From a virus (Duplodnaviria; Caudoviricetes): a stretch of 64,000 nucleotides of DNA. The stretch lies in IMG/VR virus record IMGVR_UViG_3300032225_000686. One strand, written 5' to 3'. Below are positions 27,831-63,898 of this stretch, in pieces. The notes beneath the pieces are model-generated. The model did no database searches. It had not been told where the DNA came from and saw nothing but the letters and a program-made list of their open reading frames with translations. The position numbers and the translations under genes were made by a program. How positions within the stretch are numbered: position 1 is the stretch's first letter; the number at the start of each line of letters is the position of its first letter.

Positions 27831-28748
27831 ATGAAGACTCTATCCGAACTAGTACAGTACCTAGAAGAAAAGTTAGTCATCGTAGGCAAGGGAAAGCCTT
27901 ACGGGCAGGTTATTTTCTTGGCAGGTGGTGCGGGTTCAGGTAAAGGATTCGCTATCTCAAACTTCATTCAGTCCTCGCAATTCAAAGTCTTTGACCCTGA
28001 CGAGATGAAGTTGTCATACTTGAAGTGGAATGATATTCACAACAAGTATCCCGAACTCAAAGGCAGAGACCTTCGTAACCCAAACGATGTTTCTTTCTTG
28101 CATCAATGGGTTAAGAGCAAGGGTTCAGAAGACAAGAAGATAAACGCCTTTCTCTCTATCGCAAGAGCAAAAGACATTCTTCCAAATATCATCTTTGACC
28201 GAACACTAAAAGACAACAGCGACTTTGCTAAGTTGGTTCCGATGCTTTTGGAAGCAGGATATCGCAAAGAGAACATGCACTTGATTTGGGTACTGACAGA
28301 CTTCCGTATGGCAGTACAACAGAACTTCGAACGCCGCAGAACCGTTCCCGTAAACATCCTGATTCAAACACACGCAGGAGCAGCAAAAAACATGCAGGAT
28401 ATGTTGACCAAAAACTACCCGTATCAGTACATAAACGGAGATGCGTTTGTGATCTTGGGAGGTCCATCAAATACGGTAATGTTTGAGCCATCCAAGCAGT
28501 CTGCTACGAGAGTTCCAAACATGATAGTCAAGGACTTCAAGTACATCAAAGTCAAAGAAGCAGGTCAGGCTTTGGATGATAACGAAAAGGTCAATAAGAA
28601 AATTCTGAATTGGGTGTATCAGAACGCTCCCTCAAAATCAGCCATAGATGATTTCTTGGATGATGAGGAAGAAAAGGATGCGGGAGGACCAACGGCATCC
28701 CGTCAACAGACCCTAAAACGCTTCAATATTCCTATCCCCACAAGATAG
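27831..28748 (+). CDS. Zeta-toxin/AAA_33-like P-loop kinase with capsid-targeting-like N-terminus
   Basis: LAGGAGSGKG, DPDE, IIFDRT, N-x-ERRRTVP lid; N-terminus MKTLSELVQYLEE. Confidence 0.7.
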   Translation: MKTLSELVQYLEEKLVIVGKGKPYGQVIFLAGGAGSGKGFAISNFIQSSQFKVFDPDEMKLSYLKWNDIHNKYPELKGRDLRNPNDVSFLHQWVKSKGSEDKKINAFLSIARAKDILPNIIFDRTLKDNSDFAKLVPMLLEAGYRKENMHLIWVLTDFRMAVQQNFERRRTVPVNILIQTHAGAAKNMQDMLTKNYPYQYINGDAFVILGGPSNTVMFEPSKQSATRVPNMIVKDFKYIKVKEAGQALDDNEKVNKKILNWVYQNAPSKSAIDDFLDDEEEKDAGGPTASRQQTLKRFNIPIPTR

Positions 28749-28771
28749 CCTAAATAAGACGGAGGTACATT

Positions 28772-29137
28772 ATGAACATACTAGCAGCCATATCATGGGT
28801 TGCAGCGACATTATTCGTCTGCTACAAGACATCCGCAGTCTATGAATATCTAAAGAGTTTACCGTTGCCAAATTGGCTAACTCACATGAAAGATTACGAA
28901 GCCGACCGCAAATATGATTTCGGGCTTTCTTACAAGATGTACATGATGACCATGAGAGATTCCTTTTTTATAAGATTGGTCACTTGTCCGTATTGCTTGG
29001 GTGCATGGCTTTCTTTGGGATTCTCTTGGGAATTCTCTTGCCTTGAGTGGTTGCCTGTGGTATACTTGGGAGGACTAACAAGTTACATGGTTGTTTCTAC
29101 AGCCATTTCTAAATTGGAGGCAGCAGATGGAAACTAA
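28772..29137 (+). CDS. Membrane protein, DUF1360-like
   Basis: Hydrophobic segments; LVTCPYCLGAW motif; CTAAATA at 28750; GGAGG RBS. Confidence 0.6.
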   Translation: MNILAAISWVAATLFVCYKTSAVYEYLKSLPLPNWLTHMKDYEADRKYDFGLSYKMYMMTMRDSFFIRLVTCPYCLGAWLSLGFSWEFSCLEWLPVVYLGGLTSYMVVSTAISKLEAADGN

Positions 29138-29414
29138 CACTTTCGATTCGCCGCAGGCTTTAATCAATTACCTAGTACCACACGAAGAAAAAATGAGAAC
29201 ACCTTCTGCTTTAGGTTCTTGGTATTGGCGGGCCAAACTTTGGTTTGACCCAAATGTGTGTGGATGCAAGAAAAAGAACATGAGTTTGCAGCAGATTGAG
29301 GACGGCTACAGAAACATGGTAAATTGGCCTGAAGGTGAAAAATCCGTCGCTCGCAATATTGCAGGATGCTCATTCACTATCATTATGAATGGAGTAACAC
29401 TAGGAACGATCTAA
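29127..29414 (+). CDS. Hypothetical protein
   Basis: GGAGG RBS before ATG 29127. Confidence 0.6.
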   Translation: METNTFDSPQALINYLVPHEEKMRTPSALGSWYWRAKLWFDPNVCGCKKKNMSLQQIEDGYRNMVNWPEGEKSVARNIAGCSFTIIMNGVTLGTI

Positions 29415-32922: not shown

Positions 32923-33666
32923 ATGAAGTCTATTGCTGAACACCTGTTGGCAGAAGATGTGTGCCTACAGAAGTTTGGCAAGGTGTTGTTTGGTGATGTG
33001 TTTGGCGGCGAGAAAGATACGCCATATGAGAAGGCTTTGAGTAACAAATTGCGTCTATTCTTTGGGCTACAAGGTCAGTTCTCGGAGAGGGATAAATTAG
33101 TTGACGCTTTCCGTGAACTCAAAAAATGCACAGGGCATTTCCCCAAAGAACTCTCTCCAAATACTGGCATCATCTATCGCGGTGTACGCAGAACCGCTAC
33201 CGATCTAATCAAGGTAAAGGATTGGAAGTATGTGGATCAGACTAAAGAGATGATTGTTGGTACTGTAAAGTACGAATCTCGTTATCCGATTCAGTCTTGG
33301 ACAACTAACAGCATGATTGCTTGGGGATTTGCGAGCAGCGGTGCTGTAGCCAAGAAGTTTCAGCAGGGCGAAAAGATTGAGGGTGGGTACTACCCGTGTG
33401 TCTTCATGGGCGTGGTAAACAAGAATGACCTGCTATTCTCAAGTGATTTTATTGAGCGATTCAAAGCCAAGGCAGGCTTGGGTATTCGCAACGAGTTTGA
33501 GATTGTTCGTATCTCCAATGAACCGTTCACCTGCAAGATCATGGTCAGAATGAAAGACCTGAACCGTCCCTTGGGGAAATATAAGCCGATAGATCACAGG
33601 CTCAACAAGTACCTGACAAATCTCGGTATAGATCCGAACGCGAAGAATACTTTCGTTCGCCCTTAA
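32923..33666 (+). CDS. Putative ADP-ribosyltransferase (R-S-E type) with capsid-targeting-like N-terminus
   Basis: IYRG...PIQSWTT...NEFEIVRI; N-terminus MKSIAEHLLAE. Confidence 0.7.
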   Translation: MKSIAEHLLAEDVCLQKFGKVLFGDVFGGEKDTPYEKALSNKLRLFFGLQGQFSERDKLVDAFRELKKCTGHFPKELSPNTGIIYRGVRRTATDLIKVKDWKYVDQTKEMIVGTVKYESRYPIQSWTTNSMIAWGFASSGAVAKKFQQGEKIEGGYYPCVFMGVVNKNDLLFSSDFIERFKAKAGLGIRNEFEIVRISNEPFTCKIMVRMKDLNRPLGKYKPIDHRLNKYLTNLGIDPNAKNTFVRP

Positions 33667-34355
33667 ATTAGGGCTAGGATAGCCTTGCAGCAGTCAACTT
33701 GACAGGCGGTTCTCAAGGCTACAGTTCTAGTACCATCTGCGGGGGTCTCTAACTGTATAGCCATCTTACCGCCCATCTTTACAAAGTAGTTGGCAAACAT
33801 GTCTTCTTTAGGAGGACTCTTTATTCCGCCCTCCCAAAGAGGAAAGTAATCACTCATAGTTTCCTTTGTCGCTGCTTTGATGTTAGCCGAAGCATTCCAA
33901 GAGTAGAAGTATGAGAATGGTCTGTGGGGGTCTTCCTGCAAAGAGAGAAGACACTCTTTGCCCAAGGATAGGAGATCATTCATATTGTTCTTTAGAATAT
34001 TACCTTCGGCTGTTGTAGGAGTTGGCCATCCTCTGTCTACATTCTGCCCATAATCGTTTCGGTGTTGCCTAGACACAAAACAAGACGGAGACACGAACGG
34101 AATGAAAGAACACTCCGTGGCTTCTTTGCACAAAATTTTACATGCTTCCCACCCAGCAGGCTCATCTCCCTGCCAACCTGCTGTGACTAGGACTCCATTT
34201 GGTTTCTTGGCTTCAAAGAGGTAGATGCTCTTTGAGTCTAAGGTTCCCAAAATTCTAACTTCATGGGTGTCTTTTGTTAAAATTGAAAACTGCGAAATCT
34301 CCCTATCGTATTGGAGGTCGTTTTCAAGTTGCTCTTTGAAGGTCTTTAGCCCCAT
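33663..34355 (-). CDS. M14/AstE-AspA-like carboxypeptidase-fold protein (Zn ligands substituted)
   Basis: AGWQGDEPAG, P-x2-SP, RN-x2-G-x-NVDR, SLQED, LETP; N-terminus MGLKTFKEQLE. Confidence 0.6.
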   Translation of the reverse strand: MGLKTFKEQLENDLQYDREISQFSILTKDTHEVRILGTLDSKSIYLFEAKKPNGVLVTAGWQGDEPAGWEACKILCKEATECSFIPFVSPSCFVSRQHRNDYGQNVDRGWPTPTTAEGNILKNNMNDLLSLGKECLLSLQEDPHRPFSYFYSWNASANIKAATKETMSDYFPLWEGGIKSPPKEDMFANYFVKMGGKMAIQLETPADGTRTVALRTACQVDCCKAILALI

Positions 34356-38970: not shown

Positions 38971-39006
38971 AAAGACACCCCGCAGAAATGCGGGGTGTTT
39001 TCTTTT
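38971..39006. terminator. Terminator between convergent genes
   Basis: ACACCCCGCA-GAAA-TGCGGGGTGT stem with T tract on + side. Confidence 0.85.
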
Positions 39007-39412
39007 ATGGATGTGGGTACTTCGCCTGCTCTGTGTCAATAGCAGAGAACAGATTGTCCACAGCCCAAGCAAACGGAACCTTGTAGGCATGAACCTCTGC
39101 TCTAGCAAAGTAGGAGAGGATGTCTTGTGCGCCAACAGGATTGGAACTATGGACAACCATCTTGGTGTCCCATCCAATCTTGCCGTCCTCAATCATCTGC
39201 CGAAGGACGCGAACGAACGGTATGCTCGTCAGAGATCCCGTGGCGCGATCCCATCCTAAGTCGTGGTCGATGCAGATGAAATCGTAGGTGTTGTTGCTCG
39301 CCATCTCCACGGCATCCTGCCATGTATAGACAGAATCAATGGTGTGCGATGCGTTATTCACCTTGAACGCCTCATGTCGGTATGCATCATCGTCTAGGAC
39401 TAGAATCTTCAT
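39005..39412 (-). CDS. Cyclic-phosphate-processing receiver (REC-like) domain protein
   Basis: ILVLDDD, YD-x-I-x2-DHDLG, VHSSNPVG. Confidence 0.8.
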   Translation of the reverse strand: MKILVLDDDAYRHEAFKVNNASHTIDSVYTWQDAVEMASNNTYDFICIDHDLGWDRATGSLTSIPFVRVLRQMIEDGKIGWDTKMVVHSSNPVGAQDILSYFARAEVHAYKVPFAWAVDNLFSAIDTEQAKYPHP

Positions 39413-39573: not shown

Positions 39574-39936
39574 TTAAGCCCGACGAGAAAGCATCGTAAT
39601 AGTTCTCTTGGCGAGGGGTGTTGCCATGAGAGCCTTTGCTTCCGCCATAGCCTTCAACTTGTAGGTCAGGTTTGGCAGATGCTTTCCTGTGGCAGAAACT
39701 AGATTGTCAAACACCATGATCGGATCGACTGCAATTCGGTCTGCAAGACTCTTCATATCTTGTGCAATAGTTTTAGCCAAGGTGGACATACGAACAACAG
39801 CATAACCCTTGATGTGGAGTTCGGGGTCTTCGGGGTTGCTACTGAAATCCAAATAGCCGAGTGCTTCAGTTGGAACCTTGGGATAAACCTTGCCCTGCCC
39901 GAGTGCTTCCGAAATCAGTCTGTTGAGTCTGTCCAT
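39574..39936 (-). CDS. Hypothetical late protein with capsid-targeting-like N-terminus
   Basis: AGGAGG RBS; minus-strand TATAAATA; MDRLNRLISE. Confidence 0.7.
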   Translation of the reverse strand: MDRLNRLISEALGQGKVYPKVPTEALGYLDFSSNPEDPELHIKGYAVVRMSTLAKTIAQDMKSLADRIAVDPIMVFDNLVSATGKHLPNLTYKLKAMAEAKALMATPLAKRTITMLSRRA

Positions 39937-39969: not shown

Positions 39970-41415
39970 ATGGAACCAATCTTTGATCTAGGTGAGTGGC
40001 TACTCTTTGAGCGAGAGTATGATAGGGCAAATCGGGATGCTGCTGTCAAGTCCTTTGAGAAATTTAAGAAGACTGTTGGGGTCATTTTTGACACCAAGAA
40101 GGTCTTGGATGAGGTCTACTTTGTGCATAAAGATATTAAGAATGTGATCCCCGATAACGATATTTACACGATATACCCAAAGTTATGGTTTGCGTTCAAG
40201 GCAGCATTTAGCAAATACACAAGCCAATATCTTATGAGGTTTGCGACATTGGGTGGGGGTAAGCCCGACGATGTGGTACTAACCTTCAAGGCAGAGAAGT
40301 TGGGTTCGGTCAAGTCAGCAGGGTTTGAAGTTTACCCTCACTTTATCAAGCCACACAAGGATTGGAAGTTTCATGTAAAACTGACGAGTGCGAGCATAGG
40401 TGCAAATGTAGGCGGGCAATACAGCATGATGAACATATGGTTGCCGCGAGTATCTGCGATCAATCAAACCGATATTTGCAAGATGCTTCACGACTGTTAC
40501 AAGACCTATTCTGGTGTTTCCAAAAGAGTGGACAATAAAGCATCCCGAATTTACAACGCATGGCTAGAAGAGTTCATGAAGCAGGTAGAATCTAAGCGTA
40601 GTACCTACATTCATGAGTACATACACCACCTTGACCAATTGCGATACAAAGTAGCAGTTGGCGAGAGACCAAAGAGTATTGAGCGAGGCATCAAAGCATT
40701 CCAAGACGCAGAAGCCCCTAACCTAACCAAAGATCAAGTAACCGCAAAATATAATGAGTACTTTACTGATGATGCTGAACTAAATGCCTACTATCAGGAG
40801 ACTATGGGTAGTCTTCAAGATGCAGTACAGAAGTGGTTGATCGCAGCGACTAATACAAGAGCGTTGATTATCTTGGTTGACGGACAGACCATGACTCTCA
40901 CCATGCCTCCAATCACGATAGACGAGTTCAACAAGAAGTCTGTCAAGGAAAGATGCCGACTAATCTCTAGAGTTGTGCTTGCTGATTTCAACAGAATACT
41001 TCGTAGTGTTACGAATGGCAAAGATAGCATGGATTACCGAATCACAGGTGATTTGAAAGTCATCTACGATGCAAACTTCGGAAGCGTATCTGAAATATAC
41101 ATGAAGTTGGTTAGCAAGACTCTGTTTGCATATGCCAATTCGGCGTGGATCATGGCAGTCTTTAACAATCCAAGACTCAAGCGTAAGTTTATGAATCGCC
41201 TGTACTCCACAAGTCAGGACATCAAAGCCATTGTCAAAGATTATGAAAACGACATGGCAAACGGAAAGTCTCCGAGCATTCAAGAGTTCAACACCGCAAT
41301 TGAGAAAATGAGAAGCAACACACCCGGCATTCATGGGTTCCTTTATACGGGGCTTTTCATGCGGAGCGGCAAGCACTTTGACCCAAGGAAGAACTACTCC
41401 ATAAAAGACGCTTGA
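39970..41415 (+). CDS. Large protein with HExxH zincin-like motif
   Basis: YIHEYIHHLD...AELNAY; ATG 5 nt after late promoter; N-terminus MEPIFDLGEWLLFE. Confidence 0.6.
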   Translation: MEPIFDLGEWLLFEREYDRANRDAAVKSFEKFKKTVGVIFDTKKVLDEVYFVHKDIKNVIPDNDIYTIYPKLWFAFKAAFSKYTSQYLMRFATLGGGKPDDVVLTFKAEKLGSVKSAGFEVYPHFIKPHKDWKFHVKLTSASIGANVGGQYSMMNIWLPRVSAINQTDICKMLHDCYKTYSGVSKRVDNKASRIYNAWLEEFMKQVESKRSTYIHEYIHHLDQLRYKVAVGERPKSIERGIKAFQDAEAPNLTKDQVTAKYNEYFTDDAELNAYYQETMGSLQDAVQKWLIAATNTRALIILVDGQTMTLTMPPITIDEFNKKSVKERCRLISRVVLADFNRILRSVTNGKDSMDYRITGDLKVIYDANFGSVSEIYMKLVSKTLFAYANSAWIMAVFNNPRLKRKFMNRLYSTSQDIKAIVKDYENDMANGKSPSIQEFNTAIEKMRSNTPGIHGFLYTGLFMRSGKHFDPRKNYSIKDA

Positions 41416-52311: not shown

Positions 52312-52632
52312 ATGACTACGACCAACACCACACTCACGATCAAGCCGCGTCAGGCTAACTTCCTAGCCGCGTTTGAACTCAAGTACGGCCGCCCTGCTAC
52401 CGTCACCCGTAAGGCTCTTGTCTCGTTCAAGCAGACTTGGGCTAACGGGGAGAAGGGTCCGTTTGGATTCACTCTGCGTTGGCCTGCGTGGCTCACGAAC
52501 TCCAGTAACTTTACTGTTCAGCGAGCGATCTATGCCCTCCCGTGGAATGAGTATGATGCATTCTTGGCTTCTGCATCAAACGGTTCGCAGCCGGTTACTC
52601 CCACGGATGCCGCTGATCCTGCGACGAACTGA
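52312..52632 (+). CDS. Stand-alone homologue of the AAA ATPase N-terminal domain
   Basis: TVTR...PAWLTN...R-x2-Y-x-LP shared with the first ~62 aa of 50929. Confidence 0.75.
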   Translation: MTTTNTTLTIKPRQANFLAAFELKYGRPATVTRKALVSFKQTWANGEKGPFGFTLRWPAWLTNSSNFTVQRAIYALPWNEYDAFLASASNGSQPVTPTDAADPATN

Positions 52633-52780
52633 GGGAGCCGTGGACACTCCGGTTAGAGTGTCAACCCCCGCTGCTCAAGACCTTGAATCTTGAGGAGCAA
52701 CCCCCCTCGGAAGTTGAAAGACTTCCAAGGGATTTCAACCTAGTAGTGCCACCAAGGCCGGTCGCACTACGCATTCTCAA
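52633..52780 (+). ncRNA. Structured intergenic/leader RNA (four hairpins, possible pseudoknot)
   Basis: GACACTC/GAGTGTC, CTCAAGA/TCTTGAG, GGAAGTT-GAAA-GACTTCC and GTAGTGC/GCACTAC stems. Confidence 0.5.
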
Positions 52781-52792
52781 AGGAGATTTACT

Positions 52793-53092
52793 ATGGCCAT
52801 TACTGCTGCCCGTCGTACCAACAAGACCCGTCGCTCTCGCGTTGCTGCTCAGAACCTCATGGAAGGTGATGAGTTCATCATGCACGGCGAGCCGAACATC
52901 TTCGTTGATCGCATCAGCCGCAACGAGGATCGCGGCACGGTTCGCGTCACCTTCAGCAACGGCATGAAGCGTAACTATTCGTGGGGCTACAAGGCTCTCA
53001 TCGTTGAGACCCCGAGCCGCCACAACTTCCGTCGCAACACTCTGCGCCGCGCTGGTTACCCCAACTACTACGAGTACACCTGTGGTATCTAA
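52793..53092 (+). CDS. Small Arg-rich protein (SH3/KOW-like pattern)
   Basis: AAGGAG RBS; island-type codon usage. Confidence 0.75.
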   Translation: MAITAARRTNKTRRSRVAAQNLMEGDEFIMHGEPNIFVDRISRNEDRGTVRVTFSNGMKRNYSWGYKALIVETPSRHNFRRNTLRRAGYPNYYEYTCGI

Positions 53093-53119
53093 TATTCACA
53101 TTGTATAAGGAATTTCAGA

Positions 53120-53290
53120 TTCCAAGCATTGCGTCTTGGGTCTCTAGTTCCAATCACTAAATTACTGGTTGGTGGGTGGGGGCTAGGCGATTATAATGAA
53201 CTCCTGTGGAACACGCCTAGTTCCCCTACCGCCGACCGGACAAAGAAGAGACTTCGGTCCTGCCCCTACTTCGGTGGGGGCTATTTGTTA
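53120..53290 (+). ncRNA. Rod-like structured RNA ending in a UUCG terminator
   Basis: 53165-53189 pairs with 53214-53239 (several G-U pairs); 53138-53145 pairs with 53247-53254. Confidence 0.5.
53262..53289 (+). terminator. Rho-independent terminator
   Basis: GCCCCTAC-TTCG-GTGGGGGC followed by TATTTGTT. Confidence 0.75.
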
Positions 53291-53309
53291 TCGGACCCAA
53301 AAATAGTTC

Positions 53310-53337
53310 TTGACTTTTCTCAAATCGGGTGTATAAT
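53310..53337 (+). promoter_or_regulatory. Sigma70-type promoter with no ORF immediately downstream
   Basis: TTGACT-16-TATAAT. Confidence 0.8.
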
Positions 53338-53343
53338 AATAGT

Positions 53344-53398
53344 ACCGCAGTTGGGTGTCAACGAGGCTGTTGTGGTCTCACACCCCCCTGCGGCTTCT
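53344..53398 (+). ncRNA. Putative ~50-nt hairpin small RNA
   Basis: CCGCAG/CTGCGG, GGGTGT/ACACCC and GAGGC/GTCTC stems starting at the predicted TSS. Confidence 0.55.
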
Positions 53399-53419
53399 AA
53401 AAAATCTTGATCGTGGGGC

Positions 53420-53447
53420 TTGACTTTCCCCACCAACTCGCTATAAT
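53420..53447 (+). promoter_or_regulatory. Sigma70-type early promoter, leaderless
   Basis: TTGACT-16-TATAAT; 8 nt to ATG 53456. Confidence 0.85.
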
Positions 53448-53455
53448 AAAAAAGT

Positions 53456-55774
53456 ATGACACAGACCCTCTCAAAGACAACCGTTGAATCCAAGGCAGTC
53501 CTCGCTCGCATGTTGGCCACCGAGAACCTGTCGGTGGAACACAACCCCAAGGCGGAGACCGCCTACTTCGATATCGAGAATCGGAAGTTGGTCTTCCCGT
53601 GTTGGGAGGGCATGACCGATCACCTGTACGATATGCTGGCAGGTCATGAGACCGCCCATGCCCTGTTCACGCCCGCCGGTGAAGCCGCCCTGTTCGAAGC
53701 CATCAAGGCAGTTGACCCGCGTCCTGAAGCCGCGTCTGCCGTGAAGGGTTACCTGAACATCGTGGAGGATGCCCGAATTGAGCGACTGGTCAAGGAGAAG
53801 TATCCGGGTCTGCGTCGGACCTTCTTCCTCGCCTATCAGGATCTGGTGAAGAGCGATATCATGGCTCCCGCCGTGCATCAGATTGCCACGCTGCGTCTGA
53901 TCGACCGAGCCAACATGCACTACAAGGTTGGAACCTTCGTGAATGTCCCCTTCACCGATGCGGAACTGCGTCTGGTGAAGCGAATGGCTACCACCAAGAC
54001 CTTCGAAGATGTGGTGGCTCTCGCCCGCGACCTGTGGCAGCATGAGAAGGATGAGAAGAAGAAGCAGGAGGAAGAGCAGAAGCAGCAGGAGTCGCAGCAG
54101 GGTTCTTCCGCTTCCTCTCCCGAAGGCGAAGAGGGCGAAGAGTCCGAGGCTAGCGGTAGCGATTCGCAGCAGCAGGAGAACGGCGAAGAGAACAAGGGCA
54201 AGGGTAAGAGCAAGAAGACCGAGGGCGAAGAGAAGCCTTCCGAAGAGAACAGCGGCGGTGGCAACTCCACGCCGAACAATGGTCAGGAGACCGAGGGTGG
54301 CGAAGGCGATAACAGCCCCAACAGCGGTGGCGAGCCGATGCCCGAGGAGAGCAAGACCGATGGGATGCTGAATGAGTACAGCAAGTCGAAGCGGAATGAA
54401 AAGGCCAACTACTTCGTGACCGCCGACCTGCCGAAGTTCAACACCGCGAAGGGCATCATCCCCGCTAGCACGGTGGTCCCGATGCTCGTTGAGTGTGGTG
54501 AGAAGAACAACGGTCTGAAGTTCTTCACCGAGTGGAAGGAGCGCAATGCCGAGAGCGTTGCCGTCCTGTGCCGCGAGTTCGAACGCCGCCGCGCTGCCGA
54601 AGCCGCGAGCCGTACCTCCATGAGCGATTCGGGAACGATTGATGTGAACCGCCTGTGGTCCTACCGCGTGAGCGACGAGATCTTCCGTCAGTACGCAAAT
54701 GTGAAGAATGGTCAGAGCCACGGCATTCAAGTGTTCGTGGACTTCAGCGGCTCCATGAGTGGCATCCTGTACGAGACCATGAGTCAGATGGTTTCCCTCG
54801 CTGCCTTCTGCCGCCGAATGAACATCCCCTTCGATGTCTACGCCTTCACCGATGGTCTGCCGACGCAATGGCTGACCGATGTGGATGGCGAGACCCTGCG
54901 GACAATGGGTTCGGATGGCTACAATAAGGAAATGAGTCCTTGGATTCAGACCGAGAAGACTATGAGAATGAGTCACACTCACTTCCGTCTGGTTCATCTG
55001 CTGACGAGTGGTCTGTCGGAGCGAAACTTCCGCATGGCCGTGGGTGGTATGCTCGCCATCGTTTCCCGTGCCGTGGCGGATAGCGATTGGGGTAGCGGCA
55101 AGGCCAATCGTAGTGCGGCTCAACTGTTCCGCCTGAATGGAACCCCGACCAATCAGGCAACGCTCGCCGCGATGACCATCATCCCCGAGTTCCGTAAGAA
55201 GAACAATCTGCAAATCGTCCACGCGGTCTTCCTGACCGATGGAGAGAGTGGTGACCGCTTCTCTGGTCCGACCAAGTACGAGAACATTTACGGTCGCAGC
55301 ACCGTTGATGTCTACGGTTACGAACTGCGCGATAGCGTGACGGGTAACACCGAGAAGGCGATGAATTCCTACTGCGCGACGAGTCAGAACCGTGCGCTGA
55401 ATCACCTGCTCGCCAAGCGTATCCCCGGCTGCAATGTGATCGGCATCTCCCTCTGCCCGACCCGCGAGTTCCGAACCAAGATGTCTGACGGTCTCGCCAA
55501 GCGGAAGAATCGCTACGGCTTCGATGTCGAGATGGAAGCCGCAAAGGTGAAGGGCTTCTGCGAGGCTGAGGACTGCTACGGTTACACCAAGTGGTTTGGA
55601 ATGAACGCTCCCCACCTTGATTCGAATGACTACTTCATGGGCATCACCGACGATGCACCGAAGGCAGTACTGACCAAGGCATTCGCCAAGACGATCAAGC
55701 AGGGTACGATGAACCGTCTGCTCCTGAGCCGCTTCGTGGACCTGATCGCTAATCACGGCGCGAAGAAGAATTGA
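53456..55774 (+). CDS. CobT-like zincin (HExxH) + acidic linker + vWA (MIDAS) protein; partner of the AAA ATPase
   Basis: LA-x2-LATENL-x-VEH, TAYFD, GHETAHALFT, NIVEDARIE, DFSGSM, GTP, LTDGE. Confidence 0.88.
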   Translation: MTQTLSKTTVESKAVLARMLATENLSVEHNPKAETAYFDIENRKLVFPCWEGMTDHLYDMLAGHETAHALFTPAGEAALFEAIKAVDPRPEAASAVKGYLNIVEDARIERLVKEKYPGLRRTFFLAYQDLVKSDIMAPAVHQIATLRLIDRANMHYKVGTFVNVPFTDAELRLVKRMATTKTFEDVVALARDLWQHEKDEKKKQEEEQKQQESQQGSSASSPEGEEGEESEASGSDSQQQENGEENKGKGKSKKTEGEEKPSEENSGGGNSTPNNGQETEGGEGDNSPNSGGEPMPEESKTDGMLNEYSKSKRNEKANYFVTADLPKFNTAKGIIPASTVVPMLVECGEKNNGLKFFTEWKERNAESVAVLCREFERRRAAEAASRTSMSDSGTIDVNRLWSYRVSDEIFRQYANVKNGQSHGIQVFVDFSGSMSGILYETMSQMVSLAAFCRRMNIPFDVYAFTDGLPTQWLTDVDGETLRTMGSDGYNKEMSPWIQTEKTMRMSHTHFRLVHLLTSGLSERNFRMAVGGMLAIVSRAVADSDWGSGKANRSAAQLFRLNGTPTNQATLAAMTIIPEFRKKNNLQIVHAVFLTDGESGDRFSGPTKYENIYGRSTVDVYGYELRDSVTGNTEKAMNSYCATSQNRALNHLLAKRIPGCNVIGISLCPTREFRTKMSDGLAKRKNRYGFDVEMEAAKVKGFCEAEDCYGYTKWFGMNAPHLDSNDYFMGITDDAPKAVLTKAFAKTIKQGTMNRLLLSRFVDLIANHGAKKN

Positions 55775-55797
55775 ATTTTCAAAAAGGAGAAAGACCA

Positions 55798-56184
55798 ATG
55801 TATCGCATGACCGTAATCACCGAACCGCAGAACGCAAGCCAAGAAAAACTTCCGCCTATCCCTCTTCATAAGGCATGGCTCTACCACACCGATACCAATA
55901 CATGGCTACTGCATCTAGAGGGACAGTTCACTGGTGTGGGCGTATCCGCTGTCCGAGCCAACGCTGGAGTTTCTCTGTACGATCTCTACGGACACTTCCG
56001 CCCTGTAGAAATTCAAATCACCTGCACCAACAAGGATGAGTTTTTGAAACTTCGTGGTTCTCACAAGGTCTCACAGATCATGTTGGGTGACCCTGAAGAT
56101 GGTGGAGTGGATCATATCAGCGTGTCTATGACCAACATCACTAACGACAAGTGGACTGATGTAGCGAAGTGGAGCCGCGACTGA
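55798..56184 (+). CDS. Hypothetical protein
   Basis: AAGGAG RBS before ATG 55798. Confidence 0.7.
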   Translation: MYRMTVITEPQNASQEKLPPIPLHKAWLYHTDTNTWLLHLEGQFTGVGVSAVRANAGVSLYDLYGHFRPVEIQITCTNKDEFLKLRGSHKVSQIMLGDPEDGGVDHISVSMTNITNDKWTDVAKWSRD

Positions 56185-56945: not shown

Positions 56946-57380
56946 ATGGCAAAACAATCTCAAATCAATACCGGTGTTGTTAGTAAATCATTCCCCTCAT
57001 CAAGCGGGTTGCCTACTGACCCGAATGGGTTCATCTCTTCTAACTGTGCCTTGAGCGTTGGTGGGTCTTGTTCTCAATGCAGCAACTACTTGTCCTGTAT
57101 GTCCCCAAAGGTTAGAGAGTACATCAACAGTTTTCCTTTGTCGGTAAGTAGTGGTCAACCCGTACTAGCAATAGGAGATTTAAAAAACTTTGTCATCGCT
57201 CATTGTAGAGACTGCTATGACATATGCCGTTCCTATCCCTGCTCCTCTATCCCCACCACGAACACATCAACCCTGACCGATTCTCCTAGTTTTTCCAACA
57301 ACCCAAATTCAGGTTATGTCTTAGATGCAACACGGCTAATGTACGGATTGGTTTCTAGATTTGGAAAGTTGAAAACCTAA
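56946..57380 (+). CDS. Cys-rich late protein (MAKQSQ N-terminus)
   Basis: GGAGGGAG RBS; CxxC motifs. Confidence 0.65.
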   Translation: MAKQSQINTGVVSKSFPSSSGLPTDPNGFISSNCALSVGGSCSQCSNYLSCMSPKVREYINSFPLSVSSGQPVLAIGDLKNFVIAHCRDCYDICRSYPCSSIPTTNTSTLTDSPSFSNNPNSGYVLDATRLMYGLVSRFGKLKT

Positions 57381-57390
57381 ATATCTAACC

Positions 57391-57780
57391 ATGAAGTCCT
57401 TTCGCCAACACATCTCTGAAATGTTTGTGACTTGGGAGGAACTAGGCCGCCTTGAGCGAGTCCTTGATTCCATGTTTGCTCAGGTTGGATTGGACATCGG
57501 ATTCACCAAGCACTTTTGGGAACGCATCAATGGTAGTCGAATGTATGGCGGAACGGTCAGCATCATGGACATCAAAGACGCATTTCAAAAAACCTTTCAA
57601 CGCTATGCCAAGCAAATAGCAGCAAAGCCAGTTGATTGGAAGGCAGTCATCAACGATGTAACCAAAGGTCTCAACATGCCTTTCACTCTCTCATGGGACA
57701 GAGTAGGCAAGCGTATGGTGATGTTGACTGCCATGAAGAAGCATGACTTCAAGACTCCAGACCCCAAACTCAAGGTGTAA
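57391..57780 (+). CDS. Putative internal head protein (FTKHF-x-ER, possibly RNase-like)
   Basis: CTAAATA at 57377; MKSFRQHISE. Confidence 0.65.
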   Translation: MKSFRQHISEMFVTWEELGRLERVLDSMFAQVGLDIGFTKHFWERINGSRMYGGTVSIMDIKDAFQKTFQRYAKQIAAKPVDWKAVINDVTKGLNMPFTLSWDRVGKRMVMLTAMKKHDFKTPDPKLKV

Positions 57781-57785: not shown

Positions 57786-58511
57786 ATGGCGAAACAGATT
57801 CAATTCTCGGGATTGTCGATGATACCTCCAACAGCCGTGGAGTGCACAGAAGATGCGGGCGGTATTGGCACGGATGTTGTGTATTCTATGGTGGGAGACA
57901 AAAGAGTAACACAGACTACTCAAGCAAAGAAGCCTTGCCCACCACCAATATTTCCCCCAAAAGGAATGACCCAACAAGATTGGGAAAGATTCAAGAAGGG
58001 TCTATGTTGGGCAGAGAGTGATCCGGATTGCCCGTGTTGTGATAATAAGGTTGGTACTGCTAATGATGTTGGAAGATATCAATTCACCCCTCTTGCCGTT
58101 TACGACATCTACAAGTACTACTGCGAAGATTGTAAAACTGATAGATGCAAACAAGGTTGTGCAGAACTAAAGGCTATATGCCCCGATGTAAAAAAAGATT
58201 CCTCTTGTGCAAGTAAGCAGGATGTAGCAGATAAACTTCTTGAACTATGGTCTGGTGGTAGATGGTATCCTGATATAGAAAGAAAACAGGGCGAAAGTGA
58301 TTGGCAATACTACCACAGGATTCTAGGGATTTTCCATTGTGGTAAACCGTCTAAACTTTCCTGTGCAGAGTATGGTCCGCTGCCTCCTCTCACAACTCCC
58401 GGACAGAACTACTTTATAAAGTTCTGGTGTGAATATAAGAGGAACGGGGGAACAGGACCAGATCCTACGGGTTGGAATCAGGATTGGTGCAAGCCCAAAG
58501 GCAACAAGTAA
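57786..58511 (+). CDS. Cys-rich protein with i-type/SLT lysozyme-like motifs (MAKQIQ N-terminus)
   Basis: LCWAES...DVGRYQFT...YD...RILGIFHCG. Confidence 0.55.
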   Translation: MAKQIQFSGLSMIPPTAVECTEDAGGIGTDVVYSMVGDKRVTQTTQAKKPCPPPIFPPKGMTQQDWERFKKGLCWAESDPDCPCCDNKVGTANDVGRYQFTPLAVYDIYKYYCEDCKTDRCKQGCAELKAICPDVKKDSSCASKQDVADKLLELWSGGRWYPDIERKQGESDWQYYHRILGIFHCGKPSKLSCAEYGPLPPLTTPGQNYFIKFWCEYKRNGGTGPDPTGWNQDWCKPKGNK

Positions 58512-58535: not shown

Positions 58536-58820
58536 ATGAAAACCTACCGTGAACTATCCGAGTCTCTTCGTGAATCAACTCTTGCCGACAACGGTAGAGT
58601 TCAGGTTCACTATGATTCAACCAACGGCAAGGGGCAACCAATGACGGTGATAGCAACCGTTCCCCCTGTGCAAGAGCCAGAGATAAATAACAAGTATGAT
58701 ATGATTCGCTATGTAGAAAAGTACATCAAGTCCATGAAGTCCAAAGGCATCATCAAGGGCAACTACGAGGTAGTCTTCCCTGACAGTCCGAAATGGTACA
58801 AATGGGGAGGTCAAAAATGA
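58536..58820 (+). CDS. Putative internal head protein
   Basis: MKTYRELSESLRE N-terminus. Confidence 0.65.
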   Translation: MKTYRELSESLRESTLADNGRVQVHYDSTNGKGQPMTVIATVPPVQEPEINNKYDMIRYVEKYIKSMKSKGIIKGNYEVVFPDSPKWYKWGGQK

Positions 58821-59659
58821 AGAACTATTTTGAATTCATGCAGCAACTCAACGAGGTCGCTAAGGGCGGAACAGTCCCTTGGGCAGGCAAGACACGCGGT
58901 CCTTACGATAAGGCTAAGGGCGGTAGAGACATGTTGGCAGGTATTGAAGCCGACGCTAGACTCTATGCTCAACGCATGAAGGAGATGCAACCCATCTTCG
59001 CAGCGATTGATGACTACAAGGCAGGCAAGCCTATTGAGCCAACCATGATGAAGCAGATTGAACCTTACATCAAGCAGTTGGGCATTCAGCGTGGCACTCC
59101 AATAGCCGGTCTTGCTGCAAAGCCCGTAGTTGCTAGCCGTCCTCCATTCAACTGGGATAGAAGTGGAGCAGGTTGGTGGCATCCGACCAAGCAATGGTTC
59201 CGCTTCTCCCATGATGGTGCAAACTACCATGTGACACAGGTCTACAAGACTCCTGAGAAGTTTGGCATCACACACAACGAGGTTAGAGCAGTCATCAAAG
59301 AGTATCTACAGAAGAACCGTGACTATGCATACACCGACAAGATAAACAGCAAGAGGATGACATTAGAACAAGCCGTGATTGGTCTAGGAGAGGACATCCG
59401 CAACGGTTATAGAGACATCTTCAGACCACTTCAGAAGTATGTCTACAATCGTGGATGGCTCAAGATCTATGGTGGGCATGACTGCTACATGGAAGGAACC
59501 ATGCAGTCCTCATACAAGGCGGCGATGCGTGAGATCATCAAGGCTTACGGTAACAAGACAGAGTACAATGTTGAGATTGCAAACTATGGTCCTCATGATG
59601 AGTACCCAGATAGTAAGAACTACAACAGGCAGTCTTCCCGCGAGCAGTTCGCTTCATAA
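58817..59659 (+). CDS. Putative internal head protein
   Basis: GGAGG RBS; MKNYFEFMQQLNE. Confidence 0.7.
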   Translation: MKNYFEFMQQLNEVAKGGTVPWAGKTRGPYDKAKGGRDMLAGIEADARLYAQRMKEMQPIFAAIDDYKAGKPIEPTMMKQIEPYIKQLGIQRGTPIAGLAAKPVVASRPPFNWDRSGAGWWHPTKQWFRFSHDGANYHVTQVYKTPEKFGITHNEVRAVIKEYLQKNRDYAYTDKINSKRMTLEQAVIGLGEDIRNGYRDIFRPLQKYVYNRGWLKIYGGHDCYMEGTMQSSYKAAMREIIKAYGNKTEYNVEIANYGPHDEYPDSKNYNRQSSREQFAS

Positions 59660-59665: not shown

Positions 59666-61171
59666 ATGGTAAGGTTCAAGTCATTCATTTCTGAGTCCAA
59701 AGGTGTTCAGCCCAGTCGTGTTACGGCGGGGGAGATCATCTTCACGGACAGGCAGAACAATGTGTGGCTTGCAACCGAGTGGCACTACTTCAAGCGGTTT
59801 CTAGACCCCAACAGCAAGAACGAGAACCCCGAGTATCTGCGGGCGGCGCAGATGGCTAGCACCCTTGTCGGTGGTCAGAAGACGAACCCCAAGGGCATCG
59901 TCGTTATCAAGTTGACCAACGACAACAACGCTAGCGTAACTCTCATTCGCTATACCACTACACCCGAAGCCCCAAGCAAGATCGGCAACGAGGAGTTCTC
60001 GCTGGCGGGCTATGAGCGTAGGACCAAGATGGGAGGTCAACTGTCTAGACTATCATCTAGTGATTTCCTCTTGGGTCATACTAAGGTTGAACCACTTCGC
60101 GTTTCAGACAACAACATCCAACACTACATCTTCTATAATGCCAACAGTCTCCGCGACACAATCATTCGCAACATGCAGTCAAGCAAGTTCAATGTGCTGC
60201 GTGAGCCATCGGTGATCCAAGCAACAAAGGAGTTCTTGGATGGTGGAGCAAGACACTTTGATTGGTCCAAGGTTGGTCAGTTAATGAACCAACAGGACCG
60301 TATCAAGTTTGGCATCTACCTCGCATCAGAGTTAGGCTATGCCTTTTGGATTCTCGCAGGTCACAGCATCGGCAAGTTCCCCGGCATGTCCACCATCAAG
60401 TTCTTCGCCGTACCAAGGGACAACACCAACACATCTTATGATTCCTACCTTCGTGGTGTACTCAAGGGTGGTTCGGGTATCGCAAACCTCATGGTGTCCT
60501 CCAAGACGATTGCAGGCAAGAAGGGTGGAGCAAGGTCAACGATCCTCCCTGCTCTCAACGGCATGGCAAAGAGCATGACTGACTACAACACACTCAACAA
60601 TAAGTTCTTGGTTGCTATGCTTCCATACTTCAAGGAGAGTGCAACGGGTGGCAGAACAATCTACCCGTTCATGATTGAGAAGGTGCTTGGACTCAAGGGA
60701 GCAATCCCTGATCCTGTTGTGTTTTGGAACCGCATCTGCAAGTTGCACGGCAAGCGTAAGGGCAACCTATCAGAAGCAGAGATGGCAGAACTAGAGAAGC
60801 AAGTTGTCGCGGTGCAGAAGAAAGTTGCATCGGGTGTCATGCTGTTGGGTATCAACAAGACAGCACCACTCAATCACAACGCTGCTCGCTTTCCATCTCC
60901 TCCACAATGGAAAGATTTCTCTCGCTACATCTCCGACATCTTCTGTGATGCCATCTGCTTCGGTCTAAACTTTGATGGTGCATCAGACATGAGACCAACA
61001 ATCTCATGGCAGATTGATATGGATATCCGAGAGTTCTCCCGCACGGGCATGGTGAACTACCTCATGAAGGAAGTCTCGCAAGAGATGAGGGGAATGTACA
61101 TTGACGGCGGTAAGCAATCCGCAGGCGATCCTTCACGCAACATCACATGGCTTGGGGCAAGACCACTATGA
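59666..61171 (+). CDS. Putative internal head protein with possible PD-(D/E)xK-like nuclease motif
   Basis: MVRFKSFISE; SE-x-G...P-x3-N-x2-YDS...VSSK. Confidence 0.55.
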   Translation: MVRFKSFISESKGVQPSRVTAGEIIFTDRQNNVWLATEWHYFKRFLDPNSKNENPEYLRAAQMASTLVGGQKTNPKGIVVIKLTNDNNASVTLIRYTTTPEAPSKIGNEEFSLAGYERRTKMGGQLSRLSSSDFLLGHTKVEPLRVSDNNIQHYIFYNANSLRDTIIRNMQSSKFNVLREPSVIQATKEFLDGGARHFDWSKVGQLMNQQDRIKFGIYLASELGYAFWILAGHSIGKFPGMSTIKFFAVPRDNTNTSYDSYLRGVLKGGSGIANLMVSSKTIAGKKGGARSTILPALNGMAKSMTDYNTLNNKFLVAMLPYFKESATGGRTIYPFMIEKVLGLKGAIPDPVVFWNRICKLHGKRKGNLSEAEMAELEKQVVAVQKKVASGVMLLGINKTAPLNHNAARFPSPPQWKDFSRYISDIFCDAICFGLNFDGASDMRPTISWQIDMDIREFSRTGMVNYLMKEVSQEMRGMYIDGGKQSAGDPSRNITWLGARPL

Positions 61172-62145
61172 AATCCTTTTCACAGCACATGAGTGAGAAG
61201 TTAGATCCTCGTTTGAAAGCGACGGGTTCAACCGTGAGTGCTAAAGGTATGTCACTTTGTGAGTTGCTAGCAGGCGATGAGATAGAGTTCATCAAACATT
61301 ACAACGCTCTAGTTAAATCTGGGTTAAACGATATAATGCCTACCACAAAGATAAACCCGAGAGCAGGAAACTTCATAAAAGCATTGGGACAATGGTATGA
61401 CCAAGCAGGAGGAAACAAAGATTGGTTCCTTCCTATCTTGCAGGAAGCAGCAAAGTGTCCCAACAGAGCAGCATGGACCTATTACTCAGGCAAGGTGTAT
61501 CGTGGGGTTCTCAAGAGTTTAGAGAGTGTCAACTTGGTTTTGGAAGACAAGTTGGTAAACGATCCAGTAGGTTCAGGGTTAGGACCGTTCTTGGTAGGAA
61601 CAGCAACCTACAATAGCATCTATCCAATGCAGTCATGGTCTGCAAGAGCAGATGTGACATACGAGTTTGCTAACACAAACTACACCAAAAGGTTCATGGC
61701 ATTGAAAGGCAGAAAGCAAAAGTATCCGATGATATTTGAAGCCGAACCGCCCAAGGAACAAACCTTCCTCAACGACAATACTTCAAACTTTATTGGGAGA
61801 TCTACAGAGCACGAAGTTCTTCGTATCAGCAACACACCATTAAAGTGCAAGGTGTACATATGGTATGACTCTTTTGAGAAAATGTTTTGGAATGGTTTTG
61901 TACAAACCAAAGAAGCAGAAGACCTAGCGAAGGTTATGGCAAGAGAGTTGAACAAGAAAGATCCGAAGAAGACCAAGAACGATAAGACCAAGAAGATGCT
62001 GAAGAATATCCTTTCCAAGACATTAGGTTTGGGAGATAAGGGTGCAGAGTTACTTGTGGAAGCAAAGAATAAAAGGTTCTTATACAACATCACTCGCAAG
62101 ATGACCTTTGCTTATCCTGACTTATTGAAAGGCTACCCTGTATGA
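61168..62145 (+). CDS. Putative ADP-ribosyltransferase (R-S-E type) with capsid-targeting-like N-terminus
   Basis: VYRG...YPMQSWS...EHEVLRI; MKSFSQHMSE. Confidence 0.7.
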   Translation: MKSFSQHMSEKLDPRLKATGSTVSAKGMSLCELLAGDEIEFIKHYNALVKSGLNDIMPTTKINPRAGNFIKALGQWYDQAGGNKDWFLPILQEAAKCPNRAAWTYYSGKVYRGVLKSLESVNLVLEDKLVNDPVGSGLGPFLVGTATYNSIYPMQSWSARADVTYEFANTNYTKRFMALKGRKQKYPMIFEAEPPKEQTFLNDNTSNFIGRSTEHEVLRISNTPLKCKVYIWYDSFEKMFWNGFVQTKEAEDLAKVMARELNKKDPKKTKNDKTKKMLKNILSKTLGLGDKGAELLVEAKNKRFLYNITRKMTFAYPDLLKGYPV

Positions 62146-63068
62146 AACGATTCACCGACTACATCAACGAAGCCCGTAAAGGCAAGAACGAAGACGAGCC
62201 TTGTGTTATTCCAACCATCTGTGAGTTGTTGTCTCACAAATCACCAATCGCGTTCAAAAAAATTTATAACCGCAGACCTAGTTTGATTTATGGGTTTGAT
62301 CCTGATGGAGCAGCAGAGACAAAGTGGGAGCAGGATTGTATTAGGAAGAATCGAAAGACCATAAACGACAACGAAGAATATGTTGAAGCGGTTCATTCTT
62401 GGCTTGAGAGTGTGCATGGAGCAAAGGGTGGCTTTATGAACAGAATCCTTGCTATGGGTAAATGCCCCAACAAAGGTCCGTGGGCCTGTTGGCAAGGTAC
62501 TGCATACCGTGGTCTGGGGAAGAGAAAAGAGTGGGTTCAAAAACTCAACTTCACCGGAGAGGTAATAACTAAACAAGGACGGAGACAAAATGAACAATGG
62601 CTAGTAGCACAGGGGGAGTACAAAAGCCTATACCCCGCACAGTCTTGGACAAGTGATTGGAATACTGCTCTTAGTTTCTTGTTGAGTAATGAGAATGTAT
62701 ACTCCGATATGAAATTAGGAGTCATAGTTGAGATGAAGTTGACTAGGGACAACACACTCTTCAGCCCAGACTTCATGAATGATATGGTCAAGGGGTATCG
62801 TGAGAGTGAGATCATACGAATAGGAAATGAACCAACGAAGTGTCGGATGTACATTCGCACAAAAGAGTTGCACGACACTCTAAATATGAAGATACAGTAT
62901 CCTGAAAAATTGAGAACGGGCGGTTCAGAAAAACAGCAGGAAGAATACTACATCAATCAATGGCACAAGAAGTTGGCGGTCTTTATTGGAGAGAAGAACG
63001 CAAAGAAATTGATGAGCAGCGCACAGTACTTGAAGATTGTCAAGAACTTTAGAAAGACAGACTACTGA
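62142..63068 (+). CDS. Putative ADP-ribosyltransferase (R-S-E type) with capsid-targeting-like N-terminus
   Basis: AYRG...YPAQSWT...ESEIIRI; MKRFTDYINE. Confidence 0.7.
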   Translation: MKRFTDYINEARKGKNEDEPCVIPTICELLSHKSPIAFKKIYNRRPSLIYGFDPDGAAETKWEQDCIRKNRKTINDNEEYVEAVHSWLESVHGAKGGFMNRILAMGKCPNKGPWACWQGTAYRGLGKRKEWVQKLNFTGEVITKQGRRQNEQWLVAQGEYKSLYPAQSWTSDWNTALSFLLSNENVYSDMKLGVIVEMKLTRDNTLFSPDFMNDMVKGYRESEIIRIGNEPTKCRMYIRTKELHDTLNMKIQYPEKLRTGGSEKQQEEYYINQWHKKLAVFIGEKNAKKLMSSAQYLKIVKNFRKTDY

Positions 63069-63898
63069 TGAAACGCTTCACATCATACATCCCAGAACTA
63101 TTCAGCAGTCCAACAAATCCAAACACATGGAGTAGGGTTGTTGTAAGAACAAACGACTCTGCCAACTACAAGTTCACTATGGCTTGGCTTGCTGATGGAT
63201 ATGCTTTGGCTCCAAAGTGCTGCAAAGAACTTCTCGCCTTCTATGAGAAGAACGACATCATGATTGACCTTAAGTGGAGCACGGGAGTAGGAAAAATGTA
63301 TACCTACCTCAAGGGAAGCAAGGTTCGTTCAGATGATCCTACTTCTCTTGACGGTATGTCTTACTTGGTAGGATTTACCCGACTCTCGGCTATGGGTGCT
63401 GACTACTCCGGTCTCTTCTCATTAATCAATCCTGATATACCACCAATATCTAAATCCGTGGTTTGGGACAACACTTATGAGTTGTGGTTCTCCGCAGACA
63501 ACGCTAGGGTTGGTTTCCCAAACGGCAAGTCAAAAACATTTCCTGCAAACGATCTTGGGTGGGTATGCTCTAGTGAGGACTGCTTGAAAGGAGTAGATGA
63601 TGACTTGGGTATAATGAGTGGGTCATCTGCCATCTCTGTATTCAATACTCTTCTTGCGATCATTGAAGACTTCATCAAAGTAAAACGACCATCGGCTATC
63701 ATCATCGGATCGAAGTTGGGAGCAAAGTCGGCTAGACCTGCGGTATACAAGCGTATTGCCAAGATGGCTGCTCAGAAGTTAGGTGGAACCGTGTATGATC
63801 TAGATCAGTACAGAACACCACAGGCTAGACCCGGATTGATGCACGGGGTTCTTGTCACTTTCAATGTATCAAAAGACTTCTTCGTAATGCCAAAATAA
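63068..63898 (+). CDS. Putative internal head protein
   Basis: MKRFTSYIPE N-terminus; TGATG coupling. Confidence 0.65.
   Translation: MKRFTSYIPELFSSPTNPNTWSRVVVRTNDSANYKFTMAWLADGYALAPKCCKELLAFYEKNDIMIDLKWSTGVGKMYTYLKGSKVRSDDPTSLDGMSYLVGFTRLSAMGADYSGLFSLINPDIPPISKSVVWDNTYELWFSADNARVGFPNGKSKTFPANDLGWVCSSEDCLKGVDDDLGIMSGSSAISVFNTLLAIIEDFIKVKRPSAIIIGSKLGAKSARPAVYKRIAKMAAQKLGGTVYDLDQYRTPQARPGLMHGVLVTFNVSKDFFVMPK

Follow-up and report, generated by a model that had tools for sequence, protein, structure and literature searches.

The window analysed here is a stretch of 64,000 nucleotides of viral DNA (IMG/VR record IMGVR_UViG_3300032225_000686), in which twelve genes begin with a short peptide resembling the capsid targeting sequence (CTS) of the internal proteins (IPs) of phage T4. 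An original prediction, made from the letters and their open reading frames, had proposed these twelve N-termini as the shared tag of a packaged and injected set of effectors. Our translations reproduce its peptides exactly, at the positions given below, and seven of the genes are indeed clustered at 57.4-63.9 kb, as it had claimed. Judging from their sequences, at least eight and probably 10 or 11 late proteins carry a T4-type CTS, in the form of a 9-14-residue N-terminal propeptide M-K-x-[FY]-x-x-[aromatic or hydrophobic]-[ILM]-x-E. The genes are named throughout by the position of their start codon, with (-) for the minus strand. In the lines below an arrow marks the predicted cleavage site and scores compare the leader with that of T4 (aa, amino acids; pI, isoelectric point).

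27831..28748, plus strand: zeta-toxin-like P-loop kinase; leader MKTLSELVQYLEE↓K; mature pI 9.5.
32923..33666, plus strand: ADP-ribosyltransferase (ART)-like paralogue 3; leader MKSIAEHLLAE↓D; gapped score 19.
33663..34355, minus strand: M14/AstE-like protein; leader MGLKTFKEQLE↓N; pI 5.5; gapped score 19.
39574..39936, minus strand: small basic protein, a weak member of the set; leader MDRLNRLISE↓A with an I-S-E site; mature pI 9.6.
39970..41415, plus strand: zincin-like protein with HEYIH; degenerate leader MEPIFDLGEWLLFE↓R (reading on as ↓REYDR).
57377..57383, plus strand: CTAAATA resembling a late-type promoter, 7 nt ahead of the ATG that opens the cluster (57391).
57391..57780, plus strand: tagged protein of 129 aa; leader MKSFRQHISE↓M; score 26; mature pI 9.8.
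57786..58511, plus strand: untagged Cys-rich gene within the operon, starting MAKQIQ; 16 Cys, no leader.
58536..58820, plus strand: tagged protein of 94 aa; leader MKTYRELSE↓S; score 25, rising to 30 with a gap.
58817..59659, plus strand: tagged protein of 280 aa; leader MKNYFEFMQQLNE↓V; score 27.
59666..61171, plus strand: tagged protein of 501 aa; leader MVRFKSFISE↓SKG.
61168..62145, plus strand: ART-like paralogue 1; leader MKSFSQHMSE↓K.
62142..63068, plus strand: ART-like paralogue 2; leader MKRFTDYINE↓A; score 23.
63068..63898, plus strand: tagged protein of 276 aa; leader MKRFTSYIPE↓L; score 22.

As query we used the T4 leader MKTYQEFIAE, read from NC_000866, where it is identical in ipII and ipIII; the enrichment test is therefore independent of the window and not circular. 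For each frame opened by ATG, on either strand, the first ten residues were scored against it (BLOSUM62, ungapped; n = 1539, mean -2.7, sd 6.1). The top eight of the 1539 frames are 58817, 57391, 58536, 62142, 63068, 61168, 59666 and 27831, with scores from 27 to 19. All eight are listed gene starts, and seven of them belong to the eight consecutive genes at 57.4-63.9 kb, while the highest score among the 59 other gene starts of the window is 12. When a gap is allowed, 32923 and 34355(-) also reach 19, so that 10 of the 12 listed genes have a score of 19 or more, whereas none of the 59 others exceeds 14. A matrix trained on the leaders of another phage contig again placed the seven cluster genes in the top seven positions. 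A strict pattern applied to the DNA (M-K-x-[FY]-x3, a codon with T at its second base, mostly hydrophobic, then x-E) has four matches in the window against 0.09 expected, a number reached in 0 of 100 shuffles. In the T4 genome, used as a positive control, the same score ranks ipIII, ipII and ipI within the top four frames.

A chance resemblance of a few N-termini is extremely improbable in view of these rankings. It would be compatible with 39936(-) and 39970 taken alone, but two scoring schemes both rank the seven cluster genes ahead of all other frames among the 1539, which effectively refutes it for the core set, and the excess of the strict pattern, of gapped scores and of combined leader features over other genes or shuffles also counts against it.

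The resemblance holds at individual positions. Residues 4 and 7 of the T4 CTS serve targeting and residues 8 and 10 processing (PMC9026906, summarising Mullaney and Black 1996), and the T4 head protease gp21 cleaves after Glu in an L/I-x-E context (PMC9026906). The window leaders match the T4 leader at both the targeting and the processing positions. Every cluster leader has Phe or Tyr at residue 4 and His, Tyr, Phe or Leu at residue 7; six of the seven have Ile or Met at residue 8, and the Glu stands at position 9, 10 or 13. An [ILMV]-x-E ending at residues 8-14 is found in 11 of the 12 tagged genes against 6 of the 59 others; in combination with a start of the form M[KR]x[FYWLI], it is found in 8 of the 12 against 1 of the 59. 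The sole untagged gene that combines both features is that of the window's own gp21-type protease, which starts MKLFCDINE↓E. This parallels T4 gp21, which itself has a cleavage-type site, LIE-9, close to its own N-terminus (PMC9026906).

Could the leader direct proteins elsewhere, to the membrane or periplasm, to the tail or baseplate, or into a degradation pathway? We regard this as very improbable: the leader has neither a hydrophobic core nor a signal-peptidase site, it closely resembles the head-targeting peptide that experiments have defined in T4, and the head protease carries the same leader features.

Between pairs of leaders, third codon positions are identical in only 3-7 of 10 cases. 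On this comparison the leaders are conserved as peptide and not as DNA, which argues against a recent duplication, a recombination site or an RNA signal. An element acting at the DNA or RNA level was considered and rejected, as synonymous positions are not conserved. A broader alternative would see in the shared N-terminus an optimum for translation initiation or for the mRNA, or 5' ends shared through duplication or cassette recombination, with no role in targeting. Lys at codon 2 is frequent in well-expressed genes, several tagged genes lie 5-7 nt behind a promoter motif and are perhaps near-leaderless at the mRNA level, and the T4 genes 61.1 and td, neither of them known to encode a head protein, have similar N-termini. 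However, apart from the divergence at third positions, conservation falls on residues 4, 7, 8 and 10 and on the Glu junction, the leader varies in length among orthologues while its junction stays, and the motif is missing from other late genes whose promoters are arranged in this way. This alternative thus appears distinctly improbable to us.

In the orthologue sequences it is the Glu junction that is conserved, not the length of the leader. Fifteen orthologues of the 59666 protein (43-97% identity) have leaders of 10-24 residues, all ending in [LMV]-x-E↓S(K/Q)G; no sequence of the 15 departs from E10 or G13, and the conserved domain starts at S-(K/Q)-G. Some of these orthologues have two successive sites (MKKFIERVTE...MLAE↓SKG), as does T4 IPII (MKTYQEFIAE↓ARVGAGKLE↓A). 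Orthologues of the ART-like 61168 retain MKSF..H.[AS]E, and the linker behind it varies or is deleted. The L008 orthologue of 32923 starts MKRLLEHLLQE↓E. For 39970, the orthologues read MKSFNSWLLLE↓REFDR (L008) and (GTG)KSYHELALLLE↓RELDR (G001, described below), with the same junction, and the case for its membership, as a matter of sequence, comes entirely from these orthologues. Among 95 detectable relatives of 34355(-), the nearest, of phage type, start MKSFKERLHE, MKSFRKFIVE or MKSFLEHIKD, and distant relatives of cellular type (GFHG[DN]E) have no leader. A CTS-like leader is also kept at about 33% identity by the homologues of 27831 in RB16, Aeromonas phage 65.2 and Klebsiella phiKp_9, with the starts MKSFKDFVSLDE, MKKFSEFIKLEE and MKSFKQFTESTLTE, respectively.

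Two related contigs extend this picture. The record IMGVR_UViG_3300042691_012617 (G001; 168 kb, 93% complete, about 53% identity in the 59666 protein) carries a single cluster, at 143.6-166.3 kb, in which at least 14 genes are tagged; this cluster includes homologues of the zeta-like and zincin-like genes, which are scattered in the window, and a tagged protein of 1067 aa. Its homologue of 58536 starts MKSYKDYISE, that of 58817 starts MKTYFDLLQSIQE↓A, and that of 63068 starts MVMEFNAYLAE↓LFD, with the same junction. Its homologue of 57391 forms the C-terminal portion of a protein of 309 aa with the start MTKSFNQYLTE, and its homologue of 39936(-) starts MKDPFNNPLVNDIRNMLNE; a homologue search for 39936(-) returned a single protein of 96% identity and is therefore uninformative on this leader. 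In the closest relative contig, L002 (IMGVR_UViG_3300045125_000034), the leaders are kept and two more lie downstream. This contig is rich in frameshifts, with its orthologue of the 501-aa protein split over three frames; these are probably long-read indel errors, and gene lengths in L002 are unreliable because of them. The strict ten-mer pattern has four to five matches each in the window, G001 and G002, four in T4 (ipII and ipIII among them), and one to three in RB16, Aeromonas phage 65.2, HTVC008M, Mosig, S-SM2, Melnitz and AG-345-L05.

The cluster opens behind the CTAAATA at 57377, and the same motif precedes the structural genes 12158, 19017 and 21681. As a motif only, [CA]TAAATA stands 5-7 nt before 27831, 39936(-), 39970 and 57391: CTAAATA is found at 27819, upstream of 27831, and TATAAATA lies at 39957, upstream of 39970, and also directly upstream of 39936(-). 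A further late-type motif at 31939 heads the 31945/32923 unit. The earlier claim that all tagged genes lie in late-promoter units is thus only partly right: the motif precedes 27831, the 32923 unit, 39936(-), 39970 and the 57391 cluster, but the claim is slightly overstated because 34355(-) has only a version with one mismatch. Sigma-70-like sites are depleted in 56-64 kb, and the cluster genes are translationally coupled via ATGA or TGATG overlaps; 58817, for instance, has a GGAGG ribosome-binding site, and its start overlaps the upstream stop codon as ATGA. The products share a basic charge as well. A predicted mature pI of 9.0-9.8 is found in 11 of the 12 tagged proteins, against a pI of at least 9 in 10 of the 59 other genes (Fisher p = 1.4e-6), and the T4 internal proteins are likewise basic (PMC9026906).

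A separate observation concerns the late transcripts. In several genes no more than 3-7 nt separate [CA]TAAATA from the start codon (motifs at 27819, 21669, 23250, 39958 and 57377), and because of this short distance their late mRNAs may be leaderless or nearly so, without a Shine-Dalgarno sequence.

The window also encodes the T4-type head genes that a capsid targeting sequence would call upon:

18317..18964, plus strand: gp21-type prohead serine protease (Pfam Peptidase_S77 5.4e-33; phrog_207 1.3e-77).
19017..20150, plus strand: gp22-type scaffolding core protein (Pfam T4_CASP 2.3e-69; phrog_237).
Elsewhere in the 64-kb window: portal protein (Pfam Portal_T4 6e-172).
Elsewhere in the 64-kb window: major capsid protein of gp23 type (Pfam Gp23 2.5e-143).

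The capsid protein has at most about 60% identity to records in the phage collection; the nearest are those of Pelagibacter phage Mosig, Methylophilales phage Melnitz, HTVC008M and Synechococcus myoviruses, all filed under Kyanoviridae. No close nucleotide relative emerged when two segments of the window were compared by megablast with 50,697 phage records. Because of this T4-type structural module, the Kyanoviridae-like capsid protein and the absence of a close megablast relative, the window is assigned, from its sequence, to an uncultured marine T4-like myovirus. The gp22-type scaffold contains 23 [LIMV]xE sites and is presumed to be the docking partner of the leaders.

What do the tagged genes encode? 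The original prediction had named three ARTs, a zeta-like kinase, zincin and M14 folds and nuclease-like folds among proteins that were otherwise unrelated. The proteins are mutually unrelated except for the ART-like ones: 32923 is paralogous to 61168 and 62142 (1e-10 to 1e-12), and 62142 matches 61168 by blastp at 2e-17. The motifs Y-R-G, Q-S-W-[ST] and E-x-E are invariant in seven sequences, including the three window paralogues, and follow each other in the correct R-S-E order; in 61168 the invariant residues are R112-G113, S150, Q155-S156-W157 and E214-x-E216. An AF2 model of 61168 (pLDDT 68.6) has as its top Foldseek match the ART Vis (E 0.023). In VIA, Vis is matched at Z 6.2 (rmsd 3.4, 116 aligned), below the level where Z alone decides, and HopU1, pertussis S1, diphtheria toxin, Tre1, Scabin and other ARTs follow at Z 4-6; among viral models, head-morphogenesis and minor-capsid ART fusions are matched. 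We found no Pfam, NCBIfam or PDB profile match for the ART-like proteins, only chance matches to FimC when a profile of the paralogues was run against PDB sequences, and no tblastn match of 61168 in cultured phage records. Since no sequence profile places these proteins, we call them ART-like rather than members of a curated family: three paralogues of the R-S-ExE type with invariant motifs and, for the modelled 61168, consistent matches to the ART fold at a modest Z.

Relatives of the window show a further domain next to this family. A leader-tagged domain beginning ...GNWVRP..., which is possibly ParB/Srx-like, stands free in G001 (162852-162322, minus strand, 176 aa) and is fused upstream of an ART domain in P0008 (418 aa).

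The kinase was correctly recognised: 27831 matches Pfam Zeta_toxin (PF06414) at 5.6e-09, with 36.2 bits against a gathering cutoff of 22.3, and phrog_5268 at 2e-53. Its Walker A motif is GAGSGKG, in which Gly replaces the usual Ser/Thr after Lys. The two peptidase-like assignments hold in part. The zincin-like 39970 has its HEYIH, but the match to Pfam Tox-MPTase2 (4.2e-4, 20.5 bits) is weak and below the cutoff of 25. For 34355(-), the sequence makes membership in the M14/AstE fold family likely, with an NCBIfam match (NF052223, 1.1e-12) that is below the cutoff. The first zinc-ligand His is Gln in this protein and in its phage-type relatives (G-x-Q-G-D-E versus cellular G-F-H-G-[DN]-E), and the H-x-x-E zinc-binding motif is absent from 34355(-); because of this Gln, canonical metal binding is doubtful on sequence grounds, and the phage-type subfamily may consist of pseudo-enzymes or have an altered chemistry. 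As for the nuclease-like folds, no tagged gene could be tied to any.

The remaining proteins offer few handles. Beyond the match of 57391 to the C-terminal part of phrog_23027, no match was found in Pfam, PHROGs or NCBIfam for 57391, 58536, 58817, 59666, 62142 and 63068. The ESM Atlas returned nothing for 58817 and, for 63068, only viral clusters without assigned function, some of them DUF6934. Structure prediction, which had been proposed for each cargo domain, was applied to 61168 and 59666; it gave ART matches for the former, at the modest Z given above, and no significant fold match for the latter, whose AF2 model (pLDDT 80.5) has its best Foldseek match at E 0.08 and its best VIA match at Z 4.5. 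Nor did 59666 have a tblastn match in cultured phage records. As a lead only, its N-terminal beta-barrel (residues 11-121) has weak Tudor/CarD-like matches (Z 3.2-4.5), several of which are RNA-polymerase-binding Tudor-like domains (CarD, the Mfd RID and the C-terminus of UvrD/PcrA).

The reading of the leader as a T4-type capsid targeting sequence is supported by the ranking with the T4 query, the [ILMV]-x-E junction, the gp21- and gp22-type genes, the operon behind a late-type promoter motif, the basic products and the junctions of the orthologues. By analogy with T4, the core set quite probably consists of head-targeted and processed proteins. The following path can be proposed. The leader would dock each protein on the gp22/gp21 scaffolding core during prohead assembly, and the gp21-type serine protease would then cut after the Glu. 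The basic mature protein would stay in the head among the DNA and be ejected with the genome into the next host, where it could act before phage gene expression. It is from the analogy with IPI-III and Alt that we infer packaging, cleavage, ejection and a role in takeover or anti-defence; on the same analogy, the tagged cargo is likely to comprise host-takeover or counter-defence factors.

Several points weigh against this reading. The phage is uncultured and known here from its genes alone, and the cleavage specificity of its protease is assumed to equal that of the T4 enzyme. At the margin of the set, 39936(-) scores 12 and 39970 scores 5, neither separable from background by its own sequence, and 34355(-) is acidic (pI 5.5), has no [ILM] at P3 and is preceded only by the one-mismatch motif CTACATA. 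The ART assignment, from motifs and models, comes with modest fold scores only (best Z 6.2, Foldseek E 0.023). Finally, similar starts are found in T4 on the early gene 61.1 (MKTFKEFIKE) and on td (MKQYQDLIKD), so that the motif alone is not proof. Gene 61.1 (NC_000866 18966-19130, 54 aa) deserves mention in its own right: with its near-perfect CTS, it either encodes a head protein that has gone unnoticed or matches the motif falsely.

The leader might also be a propeptide that gp21 removes, bringing into the prohead proteins that act there or in the producing cell and are not ejected as effectors; possible roles are DNA condensation, head maturation or the latency of toxic enzymes. The basic charge would suit internal proteins that bind DNA and neutralise its charge, and a cargo of 55 kDa here, or the tagged 1067-aa protein of the relative, would need unfolded passage through the tail to be ejected. 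Yet the T4 IPs and the 76-kDa Alt take the same route and are ejected (PMC9026906), and there is no evident task within a capsid for folds of ART-, kinase- or peptidase-like type. We consider this explanation unlikely, and retain ejection into the host as the preferred reading.

T-even internal proteins form a diverse set that shares only the CTS, and it has been suggested that the CTS may have served in evolution as a means of loading proteins of various kinds (PMC3012670, PMC9026906). The window genes resemble T4 IPs in their leader of about 9-14 residues, with an MK-x-[FY] start, hydrophobic residues 7 and 8 and an [IL]-x-Glu end, borne by mutually dissimilar, basic, late-type proteins in a phage with gp21-, gp22- and gp23-type head genes; the longer, two-site leaders of IPI and IPII recur in orthologues of the window genes. 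However, T4 has three small IPs of 8-20 kDa without known enzymatic fold, whereas the window has about 10-12 tagged genes in 64 kb, for products of 10 to 55 kDa, several with enzyme-like folds. The lineage differs too, being marine and Kyanoviridae-like, with about 60% capsid identity to pelagiphage and cyanophage isolates.

The ART-like proteins share with T4 Alt the R-S-ExE type and a predicted loading into the head via an N-terminal propeptide, followed by injection. They differ in size and number, with three paralogues of about 25-36 kDa against 76 kDa for Alt, and a Vibrio phage Alt-like protein gave only a weak structural match to 61168 (E 0.085). The Alt reading frame starts MMELITE, a short propeptide unlike the IP type, and its length is given as 7 residues (PMC9026906). 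The ejection (E) proteins of phiKZ and SPN3US are another large and diverse head-internal set, cut after Glu by a gp21-related protease and ejected (PMC5694885, PMC10052503); their propeptides, however, mostly exceed 100 residues and are not IP-like, whereas the window leaders have the short T4 form. The P-loop kinase domain match of 27831 relates it to the Zeta toxin/UNAG-kinase family, in a subfamily common to RB16-like, Slopekvirus and Aeromonas T4-like phages, from which family it differs by its leader and by the absence of any epsilon-type antitoxin context.

The principle of loading is thus already known from T4, and what the window adds is its use in an uncultured marine lineage, on a cargo that is larger and richer in enzymes. 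In the literature searched, which excludes many subscription papers, no paper was found that applies the CTS concept to cyanophages or pelagiphages. It is plausible that the cargo is much larger than that of T4 (about 10-12 tagged genes in the window and at least 14 in the G001 cluster). We lean slightly towards a wider interpretation, in which a whole lineage of uncultured marine T4-like phages expanded the CTS into a general loader for at least 12 injected enzymes per virion, among them several ARTs, a zeta-type kinase and peptidase-like proteins, encoded by one hyperplastic late cluster. If so, the leader would be a sequence handle for takeover and counter-defence effectors that act before expression in uncultured phages. 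Injected proteins act before any phage gene is read, and are therefore prime candidates for opposing host defences and for seizing host machinery; T4 IPI* acts against GmrSD, and Alt acts on RNA polymerase. A reliable leader would mark about 12 effector candidates in an abundant uncultured marine lineage, most of them without assigned function, and provide a simple sequence rule for finding further ones. The gain would lie in breadth and cargo, not in mechanism.

Some features around the tagged genes may be recorded as well. A GC-rich island (52001-56000, GC 0.55 versus 0.42-0.49 elsewhere) lies just upstream of the cluster. The gene that follows the cluster (63919-64000, plus strand) starts MYEYSISEVIKVVDGDTLEVV and runs past the end of the window; this start may resemble those of staphylococcal-nuclease-like proteins. 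A second shared N-terminus, M-[PA]-K-Q-x-Q, is found on Cys-rich late proteins of the plus strand: MPKQIQ at 48417 behind TATAAATA, MPKQTQ at 56614 behind CTAAATA, MAKQSQ at 56946, and MAKQIQ at 57786 within the tagged operon. Finally, the divergent late promoter between 39936(-) and 39970 is adjoined by the gene for a stand-alone, receiver-like cREC_REC domain protein (39005-39412, minus strand; Pfam PF20274, 1.2e-11).

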